Position numbers and translations under genes: made by a program
Shown: piece after piece, positions 20,751 through 51,209 of the stretch
How the letters are laid out: every line of letters starts with the position of its first letter
Position numbering within the stretch: position 1 is the stretch's first letter
Virus record (IMG/VR): IMGVR_UViG_3300027736_000021
Strand: one strand, 5' to 3'
From: a virus
Length of the DNA stretch: 64,000 nucleotides
Notes under the pieces: generated by a model
The model's input: the letters and a program-made list of their open reading frames with translations, nothing else
Databases searched by the model: none
Told to the model about the DNA's origin: nothing

Positions 20751-21820
20751 TGGCAAATACAGTAATACAACTTAAACACTCGACATTAACTGGCAATGTT
20801 CCATCATCGCTAGCTAATGGTGAAATTTCCATCAACAGTCGTGATGGAAAGTTTTTCTATTCCACTCCCGCTGGTGTAGTCACCACTCATTATCCTTATT
20901 TGGGACCAGCAGGTCTTAATAAGGAAATTCAATTCAATGATAGTGGCACTCTTGGTGCAAATGCTGGTCTTTCATTTGACAAAACTTCCGGTTCATTAAA
21001 TGTATCTACTACTCTTAATGTTAGTGGTAGAGATTTAGGTGCATATGCTAATGCGGCTTTCTTAGTTGCTAATACTCCAACTCATGTAGCGAATAGTGCC
21101 GCTAGTTATGCCAATTCATCATTTCTTGCAGCTAACACTCCAAGTAATGTGGCTAATAGTGCGGCCTCATATGCTAATGGTGCTTTCACTCGAGCAAATA
21201 ACAGTATTAATGCAAATACTGGTGGAACAATAACAGGCAATTTAACAATTAGTGGCAACCTGACTATGACAGGTGCCGGAAATATATCTGTTGCAAATAT
21301 TTCCATTACAAACAATTTAAGTGCAATTACAGCGGCTCTAACTGTTAACAGTATCACAACTGGTACTGGAACTGGCGGCACAATTGCAGGCGCAAATACA
21401 ATATATGCAAACACCTTTGTAGCTAATACTGGTGGTTTTATTCAGTTTGCAGATGGTTCAAAACAATTTACCGCTAATGCTGGCAGTGCTGGAACAACTG
21501 ATACTTTTGCAAGAGGCCAAGCTAATGCTGCCTTTATTCATGCAAATGCGGCTTTCAATCAAGCAAATACTGGCGGTGGTGGCACGACAGACTTTGGTTT
21601 TGGTATTATATACACCGCAAATAACAATACGTTTGCTAACGCCACAACGGCCAATGCTCAAGTTAATTTTGTGGGTGAAAACGGTACTGTTGTTTATGCA
21701 AACGCTACAACTAAAACAATCACTTTTGCTGGTACTCCAGGCCTTCAAGGATTAACCGTGGATTATGGATTTGTTAATGATCCAACTTACTATTCAATTG
21801 ATTACGGATCTTTAGCTTAA
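20750..21820 (+). CDS. tail fibre-like protein
   Basis: MANTVIQLKHS..PSSLANGEISIN; IQFNDSG; ends with two DYG motifs. Confidence 0.7.
   Translation: MANTVIQLKHSTLTGNVPSSLANGEISINSRDGKFFYSTPAGVVTTHYPYLGPAGLNKEIQFNDSGTLGANAGLSFDKTSGSLNVSTTLNVSGRDLGAYANAAFLVANTPTHVANSAASYANSSFLAANTPSNVANSAASYANGAFTRANNSINANTGGTITGNLTISGNLTMTGAGNISVANISITNNLSAITAALTVNSITTGTGTGGTIAGANTIYANTFVANTGGFIQFADGSKQFTANAGSAGTTDTFARGQANAAFIHANAAFNQANTGGGGTTDFGFGIIYTANNNTFANATTANAQVNFVGENGTVVYANATTKTITFAGTPGLQGLTVDYGFVNDPTYYSIDYGSLA
21042..21117 (+). repeat. 76-bp exact repeat, second copy at 23395-23470
   Basis: catatgctaatgcggc...gttatgccaattc identical in two different fibre genes. Confidence 0.9.
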
Positions 21821-21845
21821 TTTGGAACAACTATAAATAACTATT

Positions 21846-24086
21846 ATGTCAACACAAGTTCAATTTAGACGAGGTAATACAGCACAGACCAGCACATTTA
21901 CAGGTGCTACTGCTGAGATTACCGTAGATACCGATAAGAAAACAATAGTTGTCCATGATGGATCGACTGCTGGTGGCTTTGCTTTAGCTAGAGAAAATTC
22001 AAGTAATACTGCTGGTTCTTATGCCAACTCTGCATATGCCACCGCTAACTCGGCACAGTCATATGCTAACTCTGCTTTTGCAACTGCTAACACTTCTGCA
22101 GCTGCTGGTTCTTATAGTAACTCTGCATTTGGTGTTGCCAATTCAGCAGCCAGTTATGCAAATAGTGGATTTGCCGTTGCTAACTCAGCATCTTTATATG
22201 CCAATTCAGCATTTTTAGCTGCAAACAATTCTGCTGGTGTAAATCTAACTCAAAACACCAACATAACAAATGCTGGTACTTACGCTAACTCCGCTTTCTT
22301 AGTTGCTAATACTCCAAGTCATGTAGCAAATTCAGCTGCATCATACGCTAATGGTGCTTTCACTAGAGCCAATAATAGTATCAATGCAAATACTGGCGGA
22401 ACAATTTCTGGTAATCTTGTAATTGCTGGTGCAAACCTTGTTGTTTCTAATGGTGCAACAGAAGTTTTTAATGTAAGAAGTTCAAGCACTTCAGGTTTAC
22501 CTGCTACATCCAACTCAACTGGTACTGTAACAATTACCGGTGGTGTTGGTGTAAAAGGTAGTATCTACGCTGATGCTGTTTATGATGGTGATATTGAAAT
22601 TATAGCATATGCTAATACTGCTTTCTTAGCTGCCAATACCCCAAGTCATGTTGCCAATTCAGCGGCCAGTTATGCTAATTCTGGTTTTGCCGTATCTAAC
22701 TCGGCTGCATCTTATGCTAACTCTGCATTTGCTGTAGCTAATAACGGTGTGGGTATTGATGCTACACAAAACACTAATATAACAAATGCTGGTACATATG
22801 CCAACTCAGCGTTTACAACTGCCAATACTCCAACTCATGTAGCAAATAGTGCTGCTAGTTACGCTAATTCAGGATTTGCAGTAGCTAATTCTAGCGCAAG
22901 TTACGCTAATAGTGCTTTTATAGCTGCTAACAACAGCCTTGGTATTGATTTAACACAGAATACGAATATTACAAATGCTGGTACATATGCCAATTCTGCT
23001 TACACAAGAGCAAACAATTCATTAAATGCAAATACTGGCGGTTCAATTACTGGTGATATTTCAATAACTGGTAATTTAACTGTAACTGGTAATACAACTT
23101 ACACCAATACAAGAACAGTTTTAATTGCAGATAATATTATTACAGTTAATGCCGCAATCGACCAAGCAGCACAACCAGCAGTTAATGCTGGTATTGAAGT
23201 TGACCGTGGCGCTCAACCAAATTCTTCGTTTTTATGGATTGAAACCTCTGGTAAATGGGCAGCAAATAATGGTAATGGTGCAATATTCATTGCAGCTGAT
23301 TCAGCAGAATCTTATGCTAATGCAGCTTTTGCTTCTGCAAATTTAATTAATGGTGTTGATTTAACACAAAACACCAACATTACAAATGCTGGAACATATG
23401 CTAATGCGGCTTTCTTAGTTGCTAATACTCCAACTCATGTAGCGAATAGTGCCGCTAGTTATGCCAATTCTGCTTTTATAGTTGCTAACAATAGTTTAGG
23501 TATTGATACAACTCAAAATACCAATATTACAAATGCTGGCACTTATGCTAATAGTGCTTTTGCAGCTGCCAATGCAGCTACAGCAACTGATACTACACAA
23601 AATGCTAGCATTACAGCTGCATTTACCGCAGCTAATGCTGCTTTCTTACAAGCAAATACACCAAGTAATGTAGCAAATTCTGCTGCTAGTTACGCTAACT
23701 CAGCATTTGTTTCTGCCAATTCCGCTGGTGTTTATGCAAACTCATCATTTATAACTGCCAATACGCCAAGTAATGTAGCAAACTCAGCCGCTTCTTATGC
23801 TAATTCAGGATTTACAACCGCTAATTCTGCCGCTGCGTATGCTAACTCTGCATTTTCAGCTGCTAATTCAGCTTCAGGTGCTGCAGCTGCCGGTTCTTAT
23901 GCCAATTCAGCATTTGCAACTGCTAATAATTCTGCTGGTGTAAATCTAACACAAAACACTTCTATAACATCTGCATTTGCTGCCGCTAACTCAGCAGGCA
24001 TATATGCTAATAGTGCTTTTGCTCAAGCAAATAGTGGTGGAGTTACAATTGGTGATGTGTTGGCTCTCTCAATCGCACTAGGATAA
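21846..24086 (+). CDS. tail fibre protein with Mtd-like N-terminal domain and ANSA heptad stalk
   Basis: QVQFRRG..FTGA.AEITVDTDK..VVHDGSTAGG; ends LALSIALG. Confidence 0.7.
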   Translation: MSTQVQFRRGNTAQTSTFTGATAEITVDTDKKTIVVHDGSTAGGFALARENSSNTAGSYANSAYATANSAQSYANSAFATANTSAAAGSYSNSAFGVANSAASYANSGFAVANSASLYANSAFLAANNSAGVNLTQNTNITNAGTYANSAFLVANTPSHVANSAASYANGAFTRANNSINANTGGTISGNLVIAGANLVVSNGATEVFNVRSSSTSGLPATSNSTGTVTITGGVGVKGSIYADAVYDGDIEIIAYANTAFLAANTPSHVANSAASYANSGFAVSNSAASYANSAFAVANNGVGIDATQNTNITNAGTYANSAFTTANTPTHVANSAASYANSGFAVANSSASYANSAFIAANNSLGIDLTQNTNITNAGTYANSAYTRANNSLNANTGGSITGDISITGNLTVTGNTTYTNTRTVLIADNIITVNAAIDQAAQPAVNAGIEVDRGAQPNSSFLWIETSGKWAANNGNGAIFIAADSAESYANAAFASANLINGVDLTQNTNITNAGTYANAAFLVANTPTHVANSAASYANSAFIVANNSLGIDTTQNTNITNAGTYANSAFAAANAATATDTTQNASITAAFTAANAAFLQANTPSNVANSAASYANSAFVSANSAGVYANSSFITANTPSNVANSAASYANSGFTTANSAAAYANSAFSAANSASGAAAAGSYANSAFATANNSAGVNLTQNTSITSAFAAANSAGIYANSAFAQANSGGVTIGDVLALSIALG

Positions 24087-29540: not shown

Positions 29541-31445
29541 ATGGCATTTCAGCTATCACCTGGAATAAATGTATCAGAAATTGACCTGACCACAATTGTT
29601 CCTTCCGTTGCCACCTCAATCGGTGGTATTGCTGGAAATTTTAATTGGGGTCCAGTAAATGAAGTGGTTACCGTGTCTGACGAGGTTACTCTTGTTGACC
29701 GTTTTGGTAAGCCAGACAGCACAAATTATGAATACTGGTTCTCAACTGCAAATTTTCTTGCATATTCAAATAATCTAAAAATTGTTCGTGCCGCTAACAC
29801 GACATCTACTCTTAATGCCACTGCTAACGCATCTGGTATTTTGATTGAAAATGAAAGTGATTATGAAAATAACCACGAAAACGCATCAAACGCAACTTAT
29901 GGACCGTTTGCAGCTCGTTGCGCTGGCGATTTAGGCAATTCGTTGCGTGTTTCTATTTGCCCTTCTTCACAGGCTTTTTCTGCTAACTTATCAGTTACAG
30001 ATTCATTAAGAACTAATGCTGTTACATCTGGTACTACCGTAATTAATGTTCAAGGTAATGCAAATGCAGCTGCAAATATTGCTGCCGGCGATTTAATTTC
30101 TGTTACTGGTGGAACATCATACATTCGTGTTGCTTCTGTTAACACAACCGCAATTATTGTTGCAACAGCAATTACTGCTAACGTAGCCAATTCTACACCA
30201 ATTTTAAAGAAATGGCAATATGCTGACGAATTTGGTGTTGCTCCAAGCACATCATCGTATGTAACAGATAAAGGTGGTAGTGGTGATGAAATGCACATTA
30301 TCATTATTGACGAAGATGGTAAATTTAGTGGTACTGCAAACACAGTATTAGAAAAATATGCTTTTGTTTCTAAAGCATCTGATGCAATTTCTAATGATGG
30401 ATCTTCAAATTTTTATAAAACGGTTTTAAATGAACAATCACAATACGTTTGGTGGATGGCACATCAGCCTGGTTCATCTAATTGGGGAACTGCAGCTTCA
30501 GGAATAACATATACAAACCTAAACAACGCATGGTATTCATCATTGAGTGCTGGTGCAAATGGTACAATTGGTAATTCTGAAATTATTACTGCATACGGAT
30601 TCTTTGCTAATCCAGATGTTGTTGATGTATCGTTACTTATTTCTGGACCAGGAAATGCAACAGTAGCGGCAAGTTTAATATCTACTGTTGAATCTCGTAA
30701 AGATTGTTTAGTATTTTTGTCTCCAACCAGAGCTTCTGTTGTTAACAATGCAGGTTCAGAATCGACAAGTATTCTTTCTTTCCGTGCAGGATTAACAAGT
30801 TCATCCTATGCTGTATTGGATTCTGGTTACAAATATCAATATGACAAATACAATGATGTTTATCGTTATGTGCCATTAAATGGTGACATAGCTGGTGTTT
30901 GTGCTCGCACAGACCTTGAGCGTGACCCATGGTTCTCACCTGGCGGTTTAAATCGTGGTATCATTAAGAATGTTATTAAGTTGGCTTATAATCCAACTAA
31001 AGCTGAGCGTGATAACCTGTATGTTCAAGGTATCAATCCAGTTGTAACATTCCAAGGTGAAGGTACAATTCTGTTTGGCGATAAGACAATGTTAAATCGT
31101 CCTTCCGTATTTGACCGTATTAATGTTCGCCGTCTTTTTGTTGTGCTTGAGAAGTCAATTGCTCGTGCAGCTCGTTCAACCTTATTTGAATTTAACGACC
31201 AATTTACTCGTGCTCAGTTTGTAAACTTAGTAGAACCATACCTGCGTGATGTTCAAGGTCGCCGTGGTATTACTGATTTCCGTGTTGTTTGCGATACTAC
31301 AAACAATACACCAGAAGTCATTGACAGCAATCGTTTTGTAGGCGATATCTACATCAAACCAGCTCGTTCAGTCAACTTCATTCAACTTAACTTTGTGGCT
31401 GTTCGCACAGGTGTTTCGTTTGAAGAAATCGTTGGCCGGTTCTAA
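29541..31445 (+). CDS. gp18: tail sheath protein gp18
   Basis: MAFQLSPGINVSEIDLT..PWFSPGG..FDRINVRRLF. Confidence 0.97.
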   Translation: MAFQLSPGINVSEIDLTTIVPSVATSIGGIAGNFNWGPVNEVVTVSDEVTLVDRFGKPDSTNYEYWFSTANFLAYSNNLKIVRAANTTSTLNATANASGILIENESDYENNHENASNATYGPFAARCAGDLGNSLRVSICPSSQAFSANLSVTDSLRTNAVTSGTTVINVQGNANAAANIAAGDLISVTGGTSYIRVASVNTTAIIVATAITANVANSTPILKKWQYADEFGVAPSTSSYVTDKGGSGDEMHIIIIDEDGKFSGTANTVLEKYAFVSKASDAISNDGSSNFYKTVLNEQSQYVWWMAHQPGSSNWGTAASGITYTNLNNAWYSSLSAGANGTIGNSEIITAYGFFANPDVVDVSLLISGPGNATVAASLISTVESRKDCLVFLSPTRASVVNNAGSESTSILSFRAGLTSSSYAVLDSGYKYQYDKYNDVYRYVPLNGDIAGVCARTDLERDPWFSPGGLNRGIIKNVIKLAYNPTKAERDNLYVQGINPVVTFQGEGTILFGDKTMLNRPSVFDRINVRRLFVVLEKSIARAARSTLFEFNDQFTRAQFVNLVEPYLRDVQGRRGITDFRVVCDTTNNTPEVIDSNRFVGDIYIKPARSVNFIQLNFVAVRTGVSFEEIVGRF

Positions 31446-31471
31446 TAAATAGAAAAACAGGAGATATTTAA

Positions 31472-32017
31472 ATGGCATTTTCAGTAAACGAATTTAGAAG
31501 CCAAATGGTGGGCGATGGTGCTCGTCCAAATTTATTTGAAGTTTCTATGCCGTTTCCTGGTTTTTCTTCACCAGGAAATGCACAAACAAAACTTACTTTT
31601 ATGTGTAAAACAGCACAATTACCAGGATCAACAGTTGGTGTAGTTCCTGTTCAATACTTTGGTCGTGAACTAAAGTTTGCAGGCAATCGCACATTCCAGG
31701 ATTGGGTAATTACGGTCATTAACGATGAAGATTTTGTTGTTCGCAATGCTTTTGAGCGTTGGTTGAATGGCATTAACAGTCATAGTTTGAATGTTCGCAA
31801 CCCTTTAGCACAAACACCTGGTAGTTATACAGTTGATTCTGATGTAACACAGTTTTCTAAAGCTGGTGAACCACTTAAAAAATATAGATTTTTAGGTACA
31901 TTCCCAACAGACCTTTCACCAATTGATGTTGATTGGGGTTCAAACGATACTATTGAAGAATTTACCGTAACTCTGTCCTACCAATGGTGGGAATCAGTAG
32001 AAACCGGTGTCGTGTAA
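31472..32017 (+). CDS. gp19: tail tube protein gp19
   Basis: GARPNLFEV..FAGNRTFQDW..IEEFTVTLSYQWW. Confidence 0.96.
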   Translation: MAFSVNEFRSQMVGDGARPNLFEVSMPFPGFSSPGNAQTKLTFMCKTAQLPGSTVGVVPVQYFGRELKFAGNRTFQDWVITVINDEDFVVRNAFERWLNGINSHSLNVRNPLAQTPGSYTVDSDVTQFSKAGEPLKKYRFLGTFPTDLSPIDVDWGSNDTIEEFTVTLSYQWWESVETGVV

Positions 32018-38666: not shown

Positions 38667-39218
38667 ATGACAGCAATTACAAGAAACCCAGCCAATCCAA
38701 ATTATCTACACCCTAATAAGTTTCAATTAAACTTTGGTAGGGCATCTAATGTTCAATACTTTTGCCAGTCTGTAAGTGTGCCTGGCATCTCCATGTCTGA
38801 AGTTCTACAAACTACTCCATTTGTTGACTTGTATAGACCTGGTGAAAAAGCCATTTACGATTTATTAAATGTTACCTTTATTGTTGATGAACAATTAAAA
38901 GCATGGTTAGAAATACACGATTGGATCCGTGCTATGACTTTTCCAACCAATTTCAAAGAATACCAAAATTTAGGCCTATTAAGTAAACAAGCTGGTATAA
39001 GGCAAGAATTAGGAATTGGTCCCCAATATTCTGACGCTACATTAACCGTGTTATCAACGGCAAATAATCCAACTCACCGATTTAAATTTTATGAAGTATT
39101 CCCTACAACACTATCCACATTTGTAATGTCGGCATCTGATACACCAGACAGTATCATTACTGCCGATGCCACATTCAGATATTCCTATTATGATGTTGAC
39201 ATAGTATCACAAAACTGA
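38667..39218 (+). CDS. gp3: tail completion/tube terminator gp3-like
   Basis: YFCQSVSVPGIS..FIVDE.LKAWLEIHDW..FPTTLS; late promoter at 38654. Confidence 0.8.
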   Translation: MTAITRNPANPNYLHPNKFQLNFGRASNVQYFCQSVSVPGISMSEVLQTTPFVDLYRPGEKAIYDLLNVTFIVDEQLKAWLEIHDWIRAMTFPTNFKEYQNLGLLSKQAGIRQELGIGPQYSDATLTVLSTANNPTHRFKFYEVFPTTLSTFVMSASDTPDSIITADATFRYSYYDVDIVSQN

Positions 39219-39224
39219 TATACT
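39196..39224 (+). promoter_or_regulatory. sigma70-type promoter for uvsY/uvsW
   Basis: TTGACA-17-TATACT with extended TG. Confidence 0.75.
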
Positions 39225-39243
39225 CCTATAAGGAGGCTTTATT

Positions 39244-39678
39244 ATGAACAAACTTGACGAGGTATTAGAATTGTGGGCAAAAGATTCTGTTATTGATAGA
39301 ACAGAACCAGGCAAAGAACTCACAAACATTCCACAATTACATAGTAAGTATTTGAATATACTTTCACGGCATCGCCTATTGGCAAAAGAAGCCGAGTTTA
39401 AGTATAACAGATTGAAACGAATTAAATGGGAATATTATACAGGTAAACTAGATGATGATACTCTTAGACAATATGGATGGGAGCCATTTCCATTTGTATT
39501 GAAATCTGAAATCAATACCTACTTTGAAAGTGATGATGACTTAAACAAATTAGTGGCATCAAAAATGATACATGATGAGATTGTAGATGCCTGTCAAAGT
39601 ATTCTTAAAGAATTGAATAGTAGAACCTATCAGTTGAGAGATTTTATAGCATGGGAACGGTTCATACAAGGAATTTAA
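39244..39678 (+). CDS. uvsY: recombination mediator UvsY
   Basis: W.KDSVID..IPQLHSKYL..KWEYYTGK. Confidence 0.9.
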   Translation: MNKLDEVLELWAKDSVIDRTEPGKELTNIPQLHSKYLNILSRHRLLAKEAEFKYNRLKRIKWEYYTGKLDDDTLRQYGWEPFPFVLKSEINTYFESDDDLNKLVASKMIHDEIVDACQSILKELNSRTYQLRDFIAWERFIQGI

Positions 39679-46351: not shown

Positions 46352-46932
46352 GTGATATTTTTACAATTGATACCGAAGAAGGTATTGTTAAAGATAAAGA
46401 AGAAGTAATTAATCCGCTATCGTTGTTTAACGAAGATTATCCAATGCTTCTTCAAAAGATACCTGAATATGATGTTAGTAGATTGCCAAATCCAGTTCTT
46501 GGTAAATTAATCAAGCGATTGAAAATGACCATGAAATTGCATGGTGGTATTGGACTATCTGCTAATCAATGTGGAGTATTTGAAAGAGTTTTTGTAATTG
46601 GTGCCAATGATGCAGTTTGGGCTTGTATCAATCCAAAAATTCTTAATGCTTCGCCTGACTTGATACGAGATAAAGAAGGATGTTTATCTTTTCCTGGCTT
46701 AGCACTTAATGTAGAAAGACATTCTTGGGTAGAAGCAGAGTTTATTAACGAAGAATGTAAAGTTGTGCAAATGCGTTTTGAAGGTTTAACAGCAAGATGT
46801 TATCAACATGAACTTGACCATATGAATGGTATTAGGTTTACCAACCATGTTAAACCACTCGCACTAGAAATGGCAAAGAAACAACAAAAGAAGTTAATTA
46901 AAAAAATTATGAGATTGCATAAAAAAATATGA
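46348..46932 (+). CDS. def: peptide deformylase
   Basis: GIGLSANQCG, EGCLS, QHELDH motifs. Confidence 0.95.
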   Translation: MSDIFTIDTEEGIVKDKEEVINPLSLFNEDYPMLLQKIPEYDVSRLPNPVLGKLIKRLKMTMKLHGGIGLSANQCGVFERVFVIGANDAVWACINPKILNASPDLIRDKEGCLSFPGLALNVERHSWVEAEFINEECKVVQMRFEGLTARCYQHELDHMNGIRFTNHVKPLALEMAKKQQKKLIKKIMRLHKKI

Positions 46933-48260
46933 TTGATGCTAAAGCTGATGTAGAAGAACAATGGAAACAATGGCAAGATGAGAATCCGCCAAGTTCTTTT
47001 GTTGATATTGATGAGAGTGTTCTCAAAGAGCAAGTTATCAATGATTTAACCTATGTTTCAAAAATGGATGTAAAAGAATACACACTCTATCAAAAGTGGT
47101 GTGAAATCAAAGAGAAATATCCTACTGTTATTAATCAAACTTTATTTGGTGAAGAAGTTCAGCTTGTTGACCCAAATCAACAAAAGGTTGTTGATGAAAT
47201 TAAGGCATCTATTTGGGTGCCACAATCAGCTGAAGATTATCTCAACTTACAACCTGTATTAGAATATACAGATGATTCTGGTAAAGATATGCAGATTGGT
47301 ATTGATGGTAAAGAATTTGAAGTAGAAAAGAAACGAAGTAAAGACTTACCTGAAAGATGGAACACAGTTCGTAATTTCATTTCAACAATGAAGAACAATA
47401 GTAACATTGGTCGCAACCTAAACTTCTTGGTTCGTGACCAGGTGACAGGCAAGTATCTAGGTGTCATCTGTATATCATCTGACTTCTTAGACCTTACTCC
47501 TCGTGATGAGAAGATTGGTTGGGCTCGTGAATTAAAGACACAAGGCAGTATGATTAATCACACGGCAATTGGTTCTACTATCGTTCCATTTCAACCACTT
47601 GGTTACAATTATGTTGGTGGTAAATTATTGGCATTACTCTGCCTATCTGATGAAGTGCAAAGATTATGGAAAAAACAATATGGTGATGTGTTGATTGGTG
47701 TAACAACAACATCATTGTATGGTAGAACAAAGGCTGATGGTCTATCACAATATGATAACCTTGACCACTGGCAGAAGATGGGTTTCACGGCAGGTTCAGT
47801 ATCATTTGAACCAAGTAGAAAAGTCCGTGGCAATATCATTAACTGGTTAAAAAAGAATCATACTCGTAATTACTTTGAATGGTATGTTGCAAAGAAACCA
47901 TCAGGTCAACCACACAAACGTGACCATAAGAATCGTTCACTAGGCTTTACTTATAGTAAACTAGGCATTCCTAAAGAGTTGATTAGAACTGACCATGCTC
48001 GAGGCATTTACTTCTCACCATTGTATGATAACTCTTATGAGTTTCTCCGTGGTGAAATCAAAGAAGAACAGTTGGTAAAATCATTTGATACCAGCTATGA
48101 ATCATTGGTGAATATCTGGAAAACAAAACACGCCATTGGCAGAATTAAACAATTGACCAAAAAGAATAAAGTATCCTATGAAACATTGTTTTATGATGAT
48201 TTGATTTACCTTTCATGGGAAGAAACAAAGGCAAAATATCTAGGTCAAGTAGGCAGATAA
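46929..48260 (+). CDS. DUF4338/DruA-like protein (possible GNAT/Mom-like transferase)
   Basis: GRNLNFLVRD..GKYLGVI.ISSD..L.PRD..IGW; IVP.QPLGYNYVGGKLLAL; TTTSLYG..SQY motifs. Confidence 0.7.
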   Translation: MIDAKADVEEQWKQWQDENPPSSFVDIDESVLKEQVINDLTYVSKMDVKEYTLYQKWCEIKEKYPTVINQTLFGEEVQLVDPNQQKVVDEIKASIWVPQSAEDYLNLQPVLEYTDDSGKDMQIGIDGKEFEVEKKRSKDLPERWNTVRNFISTMKNNSNIGRNLNFLVRDQVTGKYLGVICISSDFLDLTPRDEKIGWARELKTQGSMINHTAIGSTIVPFQPLGYNYVGGKLLALLCLSDEVQRLWKKQYGDVLIGVTTTSLYGRTKADGLSQYDNLDHWQKMGFTAGSVSFEPSRKVRGNIINWLKKNHTRNYFEWYVAKKPSGQPHKRDHKNRSLGFTYSKLGIPKELIRTDHARGIYFSPLYDNSYEFLRGEIKEEQLVKSFDTSYESLVNIWKTKHAIGRIKQLTKKNKVSYETLFYDDLIYLSWEETKAKYLGQVGR

Positions 48261-48281
48261 AAACTTTTGCCGTTAAAACGC

Positions 48282-48310
48282 TTGACAAGTTACATATATA
48301 ATGTTATAGT
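48282..48310 (+). promoter_or_regulatory. sigma70-type promoter for the tRNA-like gene
   Basis: TTGACA-17-TATAGT with extended TG; predicted start about 3 nt before the tRNA 5' end. Confidence 0.8.
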
Positions 48311-48319
48311 ATTGAATAT

Positions 48320-48388
48320 GCGGTGGGTTGTAGAACAAGTTGGACTTCCCGTTTAATTAACCTTGTGCAACTCAAGGCCACCGCTCCA
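48320..48388 (+). tRNA. non-canonical tRNA-Gly(UCC), 69 nt
   Basis: 7-bp acceptor GCGGTGG/CCACCGC + T + CCA; T-arm CCTTG-TGCAACT-CAAGG; anticodon arm TTGGA-CTTCCCG-TTTAA; vestigial D-arm TTGT-AGA-ACAA. Confidence 0.82.
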
Positions 48389-48400
48389 CTATAAAAGACT

Positions 48401-48571
48401 ATGTTTACATTTCTAGGCATCGTAGGTTTTCTAATCACATTACTTGTTGCCATACCAGCAACATTAATCGCTTTCGCCTCTCTCATTGAACACCCAATAA
48501 AAACAATCATCAAATTGTGGGCAGATGTGGTTGAAACTTATCGCACTCTTTGGGAAAACATTTCAAAATAA
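48401..48571 (+). CDS. small membrane protein, 56 aa (not in ORF track)
   Basis: MFTFLGIVGFLITLLVAIPATLIAFASLIEHP..; hydrophobic N-terminal helix. Confidence 0.55.
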   Translation: MFTFLGIVGFLITLLVAIPATLIAFASLIEHPIKTIIKLWADVVETYRTLWENISK

Positions 48572-48786: not shown

Positions 48787-48828
48787 GCTTGACTTTCCTC
48801 TTGACTTTCCTCGTGGTTCGTGTATAAT
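48764..48828 (+). promoter_or_regulatory. palindrome plus sigma70-type promoter with duplicated -35
   Basis: TGTTG-N8-CAACA, CTTGACTTTCCT x2, TTGACT-16-TATAAT. Confidence 0.65.
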
Positions 48829-48854: not shown

Positions 48855-51209
48855 ATGGCATTTACAGTAGAATCTAAATCACAATTGGCAAAGTTACTTG
48901 CCACAGAAAATCTTACTATCGAGCATCAAAAGATTCGCACAGCAATGTTCGACCCTAAAAATCGTGTTCTCTATTGTCCTATCTGGAAAGATATGACTGG
49001 TGCTACATACGACCATATGTTAGGTCATGAAGTTGGTCATGCTCTCTATACACCTGCCGAAGGTTGGCATGAAGCGGCTTCTTCTCTTGGTGCCAAATAT
49101 AAAGGCTTCTTGAATGTAGTTGAAGATGCTCGTATTGAGAAAAAAGTAAAACGAAAATATCCTGGTATTCGTTCCTCATTCGTTAAAAGTTATCAAGCAC
49201 TTTTTGATAAAGACTTTTTCGGTATTAAAGGTCGTGATTTGAATAGTTTATCATTTATTGACCGCCTTAATCTTCATACAAAATCTTCTGGCACAACCAA
49301 AGTAGAATTTACCAATGAAGAAATGAAATTGGTAAAACAAGTTGAAGCTTGTGAAACATGGGAAGATGTCATTCGTGTTACAAAAGCCGTATTCAATTAT
49401 TCTAAAGATGAACAATTTGAAATGTTACAGCAATTGTTGGCAAGTATGGATTACCAACAAGATGGCGAAGAATCGGAATCTAACGATGATGGTTATGAAT
49501 ATTCAGAATATGATGAAGAAGGTGAAGAAGAAAAAGACGGCTCTCAAAGCGGTGATATGAAAGGCGAAAGTGGTTCAGAAAAACAAGAAGCCAAAAAATC
49601 TAATTCTGAAAATGATAATGGTGAAGAAAATGATAGTGATGAAAATGGCAATTCAATCAATCACGATAAAGAATCTAAGCCTACTGATATTGACCAGTTT
49701 GAACCTTCTTGTGAAACCGATGAAAACTTCCGTAAGAATGAAGATAGTTTAGTTTCTCAAGAATGTAAACCATACATTTATGGTAAAATTCCTAAAGCAA
49801 ACCTTGATAACATTGTTACTTCTGCCAAGCGTGTGCATGAGTTATTAGAAAAATATTATTTCAACCATAATGGTTCTCTTGAGCGTAATGCTCGTTTTGA
49901 ATCATATGCTTCATCTAAAGTGAAGGAATTCAAATCAAAGAATGAGCGCTATGTTAGTTTATTGGCCAAAGAATTTGAAATGAAGAAAGCCGCTCGTGCT
50001 TATGCAAAGGCTAAAGTGTCTAATACAGGTGACATTGATATCAGTAAACTATACAAGTATCAAGTGGAAGATAATATCTTCCGTAAGATGATGAGAGTAC
50101 CAAAAGGTAAATCTCACGGCTTAGTATTGTTGCTTGACCGCTCTGGTTCCATGTCCCGTAATATGGCAGGTTCAATTGAACAGATTTTGGTTCTTGCCAT
50201 GTTCTGCCGTAAAGTGAATATTCCATTTGTTCTGTATGGTTTTGGTGATGTAACAGAAAGCCGTTACTTTGATTACCCTAACCGAGATTACAAAAAAGAA
50301 AAATGCTTTGAACAAAATGTAAATGAATTTTGTTTTGATACGGTATATTTGCGTGAGTATATCAATTCAAAAATGAGCAATTCAGAATTTAATCGTTGTA
50401 TTCGTAATTTGGTTTTGCTAAAAGAATCTTATACAAGCAATTATCATTCTCTTGGTCGACCAAATAGTGAGCATCTTGGTAATACTCCTTTATTGCAAGC
50501 GATGATTGCATTAGAACCAATTACAAAACAATTCCGTAAAGTGAATAATTTAGATTTGGTTAACCTTGTGATTATCCATGATGGTGATGCTGATAATACA
50601 AATAGAATATGTCAAGAAAGAGATCCTTATGAATGGGAAAAACAAGGTGAAAAAGTAGTGAAACCTACAGGTTTCAATAGCTCTCGGGAAAATGTATTCA
50701 TTAAAGATTATGAATCCAAATTACAAATTAAACTTGAATCGTCCGTTCTTAATGGGTATTATGATGAATCATTTCGCATCGGTATATTTAATTGGTTCCG
50801 TGCCAAGACTGATGCAAAGATTTTTGGTTTCTTTATTGCAGGCCAAGGTCGTGAATTGAGGCAGGCTATTGCACACAGATATACTAATAAAGATGGTAAA
50901 TCTATTAATGAGATGATTAAAGAAAAATATAGTGCTACTCATATGATGATTTCGCCAGATAAAAGTGATATTGTTAAAGACATTGCTGCTAAAATGAAAA
51001 GTGAAAAGTTTATTCAATCTTACAATAAAGGCTACGAATCATTCTTTATTATGCCTGGTGGTTCTGATTTACAGATTGAAGATGAGGAGTTGGTTGTAAC
51101 TGGTACGGTAACCGCTAATAAATTAAAAACGGCATTTATGAAAATGAATAAAAAGAAAGCGGTTAACCGTGTGATGGTGTCAAGGTTCATTGATGGCATT
51201 GCTGCCTAA
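48855..51209 (+). CDS. CobT-like protein: HExxH domain, acidic linker, vWA domain
   Basis: HEVGHALYT..NVVEDARIE; D/E-rich linker; LLDRSGSM MIDAS, GNTPL, IHDGD. Confidence 0.8.
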   Translation: MAFTVESKSQLAKLLATENLTIEHQKIRTAMFDPKNRVLYCPIWKDMTGATYDHMLGHEVGHALYTPAEGWHEAASSLGAKYKGFLNVVEDARIEKKVKRKYPGIRSSFVKSYQALFDKDFFGIKGRDLNSLSFIDRLNLHTKSSGTTKVEFTNEEMKLVKQVEACETWEDVIRVTKAVFNYSKDEQFEMLQQLLASMDYQQDGEESESNDDGYEYSEYDEEGEEEKDGSQSGDMKGESGSEKQEAKKSNSENDNGEENDSDENGNSINHDKESKPTDIDQFEPSCETDENFRKNEDSLVSQECKPYIYGKIPKANLDNIVTSAKRVHELLEKYYFNHNGSLERNARFESYASSKVKEFKSKNERYVSLLAKEFEMKKAARAYAKAKVSNTGDIDISKLYKYQVEDNIFRKMMRVPKGKSHGLVLLLDRSGSMSRNMAGSIEQILVLAMFCRKVNIPFVLYGFGDVTESRYFDYPNRDYKKEKCFEQNVNEFCFDTVYLREYINSKMSNSEFNRCIRNLVLLKESYTSNYHSLGRPNSEHLGNTPLLQAMIALEPITKQFRKVNNLDLVNLVIIHDGDADNTNRICQERDPYEWEKQGEKVVKPTGFNSSRENVFIKDYESKLQIKLESSVLNGYYDESFRIGIFNWFRAKTDAKIFGFFIAGQGRELRQAIAHRYTNKDGKSINEMIKEKYSATHMMISPDKSDIVKDIAAKMKSEKFIQSYNKGYESFFIMPGGSDLQIEDEELVVTGTVTANKLKTAFMKMNKKKAVNRVMVSRFIDGIAA

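Follow-up and report, generated by a model that had tools for sequence, protein, structure and literature searches.

The locus at positions 48320 to 48388 of a 64,000-nt segment of viral DNA (this whole segment is called the window below) raises the question of whether a tRNA-Gly gene that lacks many of the features used in translation is a gene in decay or an RNA that is maintained for some other purpose. The initial annotation had proposed that this RNA keeps its synthetase identity, has lost its translation features, and is under selection. We examined its fold, its relatives in other phages, and the genes that surround it.

The RNA gene and its surroundings

The window is a segment of a T4-like phage genome that encodes a Rad50/gp46-like ATPase, a methyltransferase, a peptide deformylase, a large peptidase, and a CbbQ/CobS-like AAA protein, and the same gene order is present in the Pelagibacter phages HTVC008M and Mosig (Kyanoviridae). 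The features of the locus are as follows:

46929-48260, plus strand: gene of the DUF4338/DruA family, 443 aa, ending 59 nt 5' of the RNA gene (Pfam PF14236, E 5e-22)
48282-48310, plus strand: sigma-70-type promoter, TTGACA (48282-48287), 17 nt, TG-extended TATAGT (48305-48310), 11/12 match
48320-48388, plus strand: miniaturised tRNA-Gly-like RNA gene, 69 nt, CCA encoded (covariance model R1, 77.3 bits)
48320-48326, plus strand: acceptor 5' strand GCGGUGG, whose partner is 48378-48384 (perfect 7-bp pairing)
48327-48336, plus strand: reduced D arm, 3-bp stem and GUAG loop (from the sequence and the family alignment)
48338-48358, plus strand: anticodon-like arm, 8-bp stem, loop UUCCC (48346-48350), closing pair C26-G32 (family register)
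48361-48377, plus strand: T arm, 5-bp stem, 7-nt loop UGCAACU, U51-A63 pair (from the sequence)
48378-48388, plus strand: acceptor 3' strand CCACCGC, discriminator U73 (48385), and CCA (48386-48388) (from the sequence)
48401-48571, plus strand: open reading frame for a hydrophobic protein of 56 aa, starting 12 nt past the CCA

The RNA gene is the sole match to covariance model R1 in the window, and its minimum-free-energy fold is a reduced cloverleaf with a 7-bp acceptor, a 5-bp T stem with a 7-nt loop, and a 3' CCA. The acceptor includes G1-C72, C2-G71, and G3-C70, and its perfect 7-bp pairing, U73, and the encoded CCA are all as first annotated. The D stem consists of pairs 8-17, 9-16, and 10-15 and abuts the acceptor directly, with no 8/9 linker nucleotides and with G rather than U at position 8. 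The reduction of the D arm and its lack of GG, both claimed initially, are borne out, but the 3-nt D loop that had been proposed is replaced in the family register by the 4-nt loop GUAG on a 3-bp stem. Similarly, the two G-U pairs reported for the anticodon stem are present, but the length of the stem is corrected: it has 8 bp and is closed by C26-G32, which is the equivalent of tRNA pair 32-38, leaving a loop of 5 nt. When this loop is read as 7 nt (C32 U33 U34 C35 C36 C37 G38), it gives the UCC anticodon and the C at position 37 that were originally noted. In the T loop, UGC replaces UUC, with G at the position of pseudouridine 55; this change, the G at position 8, and the U-A pair at 51-63 had all been read correctly. 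The last G of the D loop (48333) pairs with the T-loop C (48368) at the elbow.

A strong promoter had also been claimed, and the sigma-70-type sequence, with its 11/12 match, ends its -10 box 9 nt before G1. The 56-aa open reading frame that follows the RNA has no Pfam or PHROG family; it also lies 3' of the element in two other contigs (L162 and L077) and is probably cotranscribed with the RNA gene while being separate from the RNA itself. A second strong sigma-70-like promoter is present at 48801-48828 (TTGACT, 16 nt, TATAAT, 11/12), just before the gene for the 784-aa peptidase (48855-51209).

Standard searches pass over this gene. ARAGORN reports no tRNA gene in the 64-kb window, in agreement with the initial expectation of a low score or a miss by tRNA finders, and Rfam gives no match at the gathering score and none at an E value of ≤10 within 48200-48500. 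The folding z-score of the single window sequence is a weak -2.05, and CCGCTCCA occurs once in the window versus 0.36 expected, which is also weak. A modest z-score and a failure of tRNA finders are what might be seen if this were a decaying pseudogene or a chance cloverleaf. The case that the RNA is more than chance therefore comes from conservation and covariation among relatives and not from the window-only statistics.

Conservation and covariation in related phages

Relatives of the window were fetched with the DUF4338 protein, which yielded 80 viral contigs with 67 to 100% identity. In 61 of the 75 loci that have enough downstream sequence to be evaluated, a GCGG...CCGC-U-CCA element of 62 to 69 nt lies directly 3' of the DUF4338 gene, and among these elements there are 34 unique sequences, which differ greatly in their interiors. 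A search independent of DUF4338 was made by pattern scan, followed by covariance model R1 and ARAGORN. With default filters, R1 misses most of a short class with CCCA loops, and loci scored as having no element by R1 only were rechecked by pattern search. Altogether, more than 60 distinct sequences were collected, which constitute a large family of mini tRNA-Gly genes in uncultured T4-like phages. We found no publication describing such a phage RNA family.

The stems of the family covary extensively. In an unbiased MAFFT alignment of 24 main-class sequences, 93.9% of the cells are paired and 16 of the 23 pairs show double changes, including 3/3 D-stem pairs, 8/8 anticodon-like pairs, and 4/5 T-stem pairs; the covariation score is 0.56, compared with 0.20 for shuffled alignments and 0.06 to 0.14 for slid controls. 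Very similar values are obtained when 63 distinct sequences are aligned by fitting to a model (94.2% of cells paired, double changes in 18/23 pairs, covariation of 0.57 versus 0.18 when shuffled). In the 24-sequence alignment, the loop-closing pair is UA in 9 sequences, AU in 7, GC in 6, and CG in 2 and is never unpaired. The tertiary pair between the D loop and the T loop that resembles tRNA pair 19-56 also covaries (GC in 20 sequences and UA in 3 of the same alignment), and among the 50 unique members that were parsed it takes a Watson-Crick form in 45 (GC 35, AU 8, UA 2), compared with 2 to 14 of 50 for control position pairs.

In contrast to this turnover in the stems, the acceptor end is frozen. 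Acceptor pairs 1 to 4 (G1-C72, C2-G71, G3-C70, and G4-C69) are identical in 63/63 distinct sequences, and CCGC-U-CCA is unchanged in all family members, as are two cytidines in the anticodon-like loop. Position 55 is G in 45/50 unique members. The loops found in the family are UACCC, UUCCC, CACCC, UCCCC, and GUCCA, with 4-nt CCCA or CCCC in the short class, and the nucleotide at anticodon position 34 is frequently A. The finding that three structural classes have a common acceptor and a common genomic slot argues that they have one function, for which the anticodon is not needed.

Based on the covarying stems and the elbow pair, we conclude that the RNA folds into an L like that of tRNA and that the gene is not a pseudogene in decay. 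The initial suggestion that selection rather than decay explains this locus is upheld by the compensatory changes in 16/23 and 18/23 pairs of the two alignments, and it is almost certain that the mini tRNA-Gly is a selected, structured, tRNA-shaped RNA. Decay or a chance fold is scarcely tenable, since compensatory changes pervade the more than 60 distinct homologues, whose identity positions do not vary and whose promoters and terminators are conserved. A promoter matching at ≥9/12 positions precedes 32 of the 48 unique members for which flanking sequence is available, and in 19 of these the distance from the end of the -10 box to G1 is exactly 9 nt; approximately 20 of the 48 have their own terminator within 110 nt.

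In other contigs a tRNA cluster begins with the element, which is located 3 to 7 nt 5' of a canonical tRNA-Gly(UCC). These neighboring tRNAs are 74 nt long and are detected by ARAGORN, with a GG in the D loop, the T loop UUCGAUU, and the anticodon loop UUUCCAA. They score 35 to 40 bits with R1, and they share the acceptor end GCGG...CCGC-U-CCA with the mini RNA, while the size, the full D, T, and anticodon loops, and the visibility to ARAGORN set them apart. Judging from the sequences, a canonical phage tRNA-Gly(UCC) is the likely ancestor of the mini RNA, by duplication.

Two further arrangements were observed. Tandem pairs of mini tRNA-Gly genes, 3 to 7 nt apart, are present in five contigs (L151 4120-4259, minus strand; L159 4377-4516, plus strand; L145 1955-2094, minus strand; L115 287-430, minus strand; L191 12153-12292, plus strand). 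The two copies always differ in loop class, with a C-ended loop (UCCCC or UUCCC) followed by GUCCA or UUCCA (UUCCA only in L115), which suggests that the loop classes in tandem pairs are not redundant. Separately, ARAGORN reports 76-nt genes labeled tRNA-??? with a two-base anticodon (tc) and the acceptor GCGGTG...CACCGCTCCA at L097 6087-6162, L116 7035-7110, and L122 3696-3771. The contigs that carry them are viral, unrelated, and richer in GC, and these genes may represent another aberrant type of tRNA-Gly.

Glycine identity and decoding

The determinants of glycine identity in bacteria are U73, G1-C72, C2-G71, C35, and C36 (PMC9976931). The acceptor part of the set recognized by glycyl-tRNA synthetase (GlyRS), namely U73, G1-C72, and C2-G71, together with G3-C70, is present in the window and in 63/63 homologues. 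The invariant CC lies in a loop of 4 to 5 nt; we infer that it is equivalent to C35 and C36, and that GlyRS can read these two cytidines within so small a loop is an assumption. Because the invariant positions include the GlyRS elements, the most likely reading is that the host enzyme charges this RNA with glycine, and we consider glycylation of the mini tRNA-Gly probable.

The features required for decoding are those that have been lost. There is no canonical 7-nt anticodon loop with unpaired positions 32 and 38 and a purine at 37; instead, position 37 is C, a Watson-Crick pair joins positions 32 and 38, and relatives have loops of 4 nt. The canonical elbow of G18G19 and T54-psi55-C56 is also absent, and just the 19-56-like pair is kept. 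With the loop closed to 5 nt, C at 37, no G18G19/T-psi-C elbow, and a minimal D arm, ribosomal decoding is not expected, and the mini tRNA-Gly very probably does not decode. The opposite reading, that this is an unusual but working decoder of GGA and GGG that supplements the host pool, draws on a way of writing the loop that gives it U33 and the anticodon UCC and on the location of the element within tRNA clusters in relatives. This reading is very improbable, however, because it does not account for C37, the covarying Watson-Crick pair at 32-38, the 4-nt loops in some members, the missing G18G19/psi55 elbow, or the frequent A at position 34, and because a canonical tRNA-Gly(UCC) is often found alongside in the same phages. 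As far as sequence comparison goes, the earlier reading that glycine identity is kept and decoding features are lost is supported.

The closest analogue of the phage RNA is the nonproteogenic tRNA-Gly of staphylococci, a parallel that had been drawn at the outset and that agrees with the sequence, since the UGC T loop is common to both (PMC7826273). The staphylococcal tRNA-Gly(UCC) species NP1 to NP3 are the glycine donors for FmhB, FemA, and FemB; they retain charging by GlyRS, have UGC or UGU where the T loop would otherwise read UUC, are poor ligands for EF-Tu and the ribosome, and serve transferases of the GNAT type (Fem) (PMC7826273). The phage RNA resembles them in its UGC T loop, its retained glycine identity elements, and an adjacent gene for a GNAT-fold protein, which is described below. 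The staphylococcal tRNAs, in contrast, are cellular, full-size molecules with a normal cloverleaf that are used for cell-wall synthesis, whereas the phage RNA has only 62 to 69 nt, its D stem is down to 3 bp, the 8/9 linker is missing, and its loop is closed and has 4 to 5 nt, and its presumptive partner is not a Fem protein.

Conservation of the identity positions bears on two other explanations. The first is that the mini RNA is a processing or stability module, in which a tRNA shape at the 5' end of a transcript recruits RNase P or RNase Z, or protects the end, and glycine identity is a relic. The L shape and the elbow pair are conserved, as this would predict, and in most loci the element comes first after the promoter, followed by an open reading frame after 12 nt (in the window) or by tRNAs after 3 to 7 nt. 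We nevertheless regard such a module as quite improbable, since RNase P and RNase Z need none of G1-C72, C2-G71, G3-C70, U73, and the loop CC, all of which are frozen amid stem turnover, and since many members stand alone with their own terminator and have no downstream cargo.

The second is that the RNA is a decoy or sponge, a mimic of tRNA-Gly that soaks up a host factor and thereby shields the translating pool. The factor could be a GNAT toxin like TacT or AtaT, by which Gly-tRNA-Gly is acetylated; it could also be a nuclease directed against tRNA-Gly, or a sensor. TacT recognizes U73 and G71 (PMC9976931), both of which are invariant in the family; a nondecoding body would suit a harmless mimic, the element often adjoins the phage's own canonical tRNA-Gly(UCC), and an early-type promoter would suit the timing of counterdefense. 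On the other hand, bait for an anticodon nuclease should retain a canonical loop, and the loop here is closed or has 4 nt. No cognate toxin is known for these uncultured hosts, and the recurrent site 3' of the DUF4338 gene is left unexplained. For these reasons, we consider a decoy distinctly unlikely.

The DUF4338 neighbor and a candidate role as a glycine carrier

The recurrent position of the element directs attention to the protein encoded 59 nt upstream. The AF2 model of this DUF4338 protein has a pLDDT of 93.5. When it was compared with the PDB by Foldseek, the matches were all to GNAT acyltransferases but were weak (E values of 0.01 to 0.2). In an exhaustive VIA structure search, the top match was phage Mu Mom (8bv8_B; Z of 9.6 over 169 residues, rmsd of 3.9), with other GNAT proteins at a Z of ≤8.8 and FemA at 8.0; the lead of Mom is less than 1 Z unit and should be read as a tie. 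Based on the predicted structure, the DUF4338 neighbor is a GNAT-fold protein, and DUF4338 has independently been termed a GNAT domain (PMC10853773).

A PDB sequence profile search for a link to Mom gave nothing relevant. PF14236 is the only Pfam match, and there is no match to PF25680, the Mom family; alignment with Mu Mom by hhalign has a probability of 1%. PF25680 also had no match in 5 related contigs, although the control genomes gave none either. We therefore rejected the assignment of this protein to the Mom family on the basis of the missing PF25680 match and the hhalign result. A Druantia type I operon, in which DruA is accompanied by DruB to DruE, was likewise rejected, since the neighbors are T4-like phage genes in pelagiphage-type synteny. 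The neighbors in the ESM Atlas are viral DruA clusters, and one of these clusters is fused to ParB_N, which hints that a DruA-type protein acts on DNA.

A second, shorter DUF4338 paralogue of ~370 aa is present in related contigs (34 to 39% identity) and in many Synechococcus phages. Examples are at G002 31067-31492, G003 21715-22233, G005 39002-39463, and L215 3704-4825 (PQ898602.1). In L306 to L313, the next gene directly 3' of the shorter paralogue is a coding gene. In phage S-SCSM2R, the depositors labeled this paralogue "methylcarbamoylase mom."

Mu Mom is of interest as a comparison because it moves glycine from Gly-tRNA-Gly onto N6 of adenine in double-stranded DNA (PMC13219725; PDB 8BV8). 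Like the DUF4338 neighbor, it is a phage GNAT-fold enzyme, and it is the top structural match of that protein; in addition, some mom genes travel with a gene for tRNA-Gly or a tRNA-Gly-like RNA. It differs in that the DUF4338 neighbor is outside the Mom family and in that Mu has no tRNA of its own. Among 80 Mu-like loci, a tRNA-Gly(UCC) lies 130 to 200 nt upstream of mom in 3, and one other tRNA was found across all 80. The canonical tRNA-Gly(UCC) genes upstream of true mom genes are at L274 2300-2373, L277 2306-2379, and L278 2224-2297, and a 69-nt GCGG...CCGC-U-CCA element with the loop UUCCAA is located just downstream of mom at L301 3268-3336. A tRNA-Gly-like locus has also been described inside the start of mom homologues in islands of Dehalococcoides (PMC3146451). 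This "pseudo-tRNA" of the ssrA islands resembles the present case in that a mobile element carries a conserved tRNA-Gly-like locus physically joined to a Mom-type gene, and it differs in having 76 bp, a complete tRNA-like fold, a bacterial island as its location, and a true Mom homologue as its partner; it was never given a functional interpretation (PMC3146451). The mom cases indicate that enzymes that use Gly-tRNA travel with tRNA-Gly genes and are thus a precedent for a link between the mini RNA and the DUF4338 protein.

All of the observed adjacency comes from one phage clade. It holds over 63 to 100% DUF4338 identity with differing downstream genes, and DUF4338 orthologues are also present in 5/5 long contigs that have the element within a tRNA cluster. 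It may nonetheless be inherited synteny. At 9 loci with more distant DUF4338 homologues (27 to 48% identity), which came from viral scans, the exact-protein look-ups having given mostly short contigs, there is no tRNA-Gly-like neighbor, and in L306 to L313 a coding gene comes directly after the homologue, so the adjacency is not replicated outside the clade of the window. A DUF4338-bearing contig that is 75% complete has only canonical tRNA-Gly(GCC) and tRNA-Gly(UCC) by R1 and pattern search, and in the pelagiphages HTVC008M and Mosig the DUF4338 gene has no adjacent element.

The only R1 match in Mosig is a 74-nt atypical tRNA-Gly(ACC) elsewhere in the genome. Genes of this kind, unannotated and a few kb from the DUF4338 gene, are present in both pelagiphages (KC465899.1 91140-91213, plus strand; MT647606.1 7779-7852, minus strand). 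They have no GG in the D loop and have the noncanonical T loops AGCGUUA and GGCAGUA, and by sequence they look like less reduced relatives of the mini family. ARAGORN detects the HTVC008M copy and misses the Mosig copy, which lies beneath a 31-aa hypothetical open reading frame, Mosig_000011. As a practical matter, standard tRNA finders overlook such genes, and, as in pelagiphage Mosig, open reading frame callers may annotate over them. In addition, a conserved, hairpin-like intergenic motif, GCTGTGCGA..TGACGCA.., precedes the peptidase gene of both pelagiphages (L089 3311-3335 and L088 3839-3863) and occupies roughly the slot that the mini tRNA has in the clade of the window.

Taking the RNA and its neighbor together, we tentatively favor, at a level somewhat short of probable, the reading that the mini tRNA-Gly is a chargeable, nondecoding carrier of glycine that functions outside translation, with the DUF4338 GNAT protein as its most plausible user. 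This proposal is made by analogy with phage Mu Mom and the staphylococcal Fem transferases, and we place it ahead of a decoy and of a processing module because neither of these accounts equally well for both the genomic position and the frozen identity positions. Transcription of the RNA would begin 1 to 3 nt 5' of the mature end, at a sigma-70 promoter of early type that belongs to this gene, and the RNA would fold into an L with a 12-bp acceptor/T limb, a limb formed by the D and anticodon-like arms, and a single retained elbow pair. Host GlyRS would read G1-C72, C2-G71, G3-C70, U73, the CCA, and the two loop cytidines and charge the RNA with glycine, and the charged RNA, kept away from translation, would be an insulated glycine carrier. 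The glycyl-RNA would then be used by the GNAT-fold DUF4338 protein, whose gene ends 59 nt upstream, with DNA as the leading guess for the target of this protein. We know of no DNA modification in these aquatic phages. The particular step in which the charged mini RNA is the donor for the DUF4338 enzyme is possible but doubtful.

In its most extended form, the carrier reading would join the mini tRNA-Gly and DUF4338 into a hypermodification system of aquatic T4-like phages that depends on tRNA and is self-contained. A carrier charged by host GlyRS and invisible to EF-Tu and the ribosome would supply an acyltransferase that is Mom-like but unrelated to Mom and that glycylates phage DNA or another macromolecule, and the tandem loop classes would serve distinct enzymes or paralogues. 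As a whole this is rather unlikely.

Staphylococci are so far the only organisms in which dedicated tRNAs that do not take part in translation have been documented (PMC7826273), and tRNA-dependent modification of DNA has been established only recently, for Mu Mom (PMC13219725). If the carrier reading is correct, a widespread viral family of mini tRNA-Gly genes that retains just the synthetase identity set and the L shape would be new on several counts. It would mean that phages build orthogonal carriers of amino acids, it would define a natural minimal substrate of GlyRS, and it would provide a handle on the unexplained chemistry of DUF4338/DruA proteins, including the DruA of Druantia type I defense.
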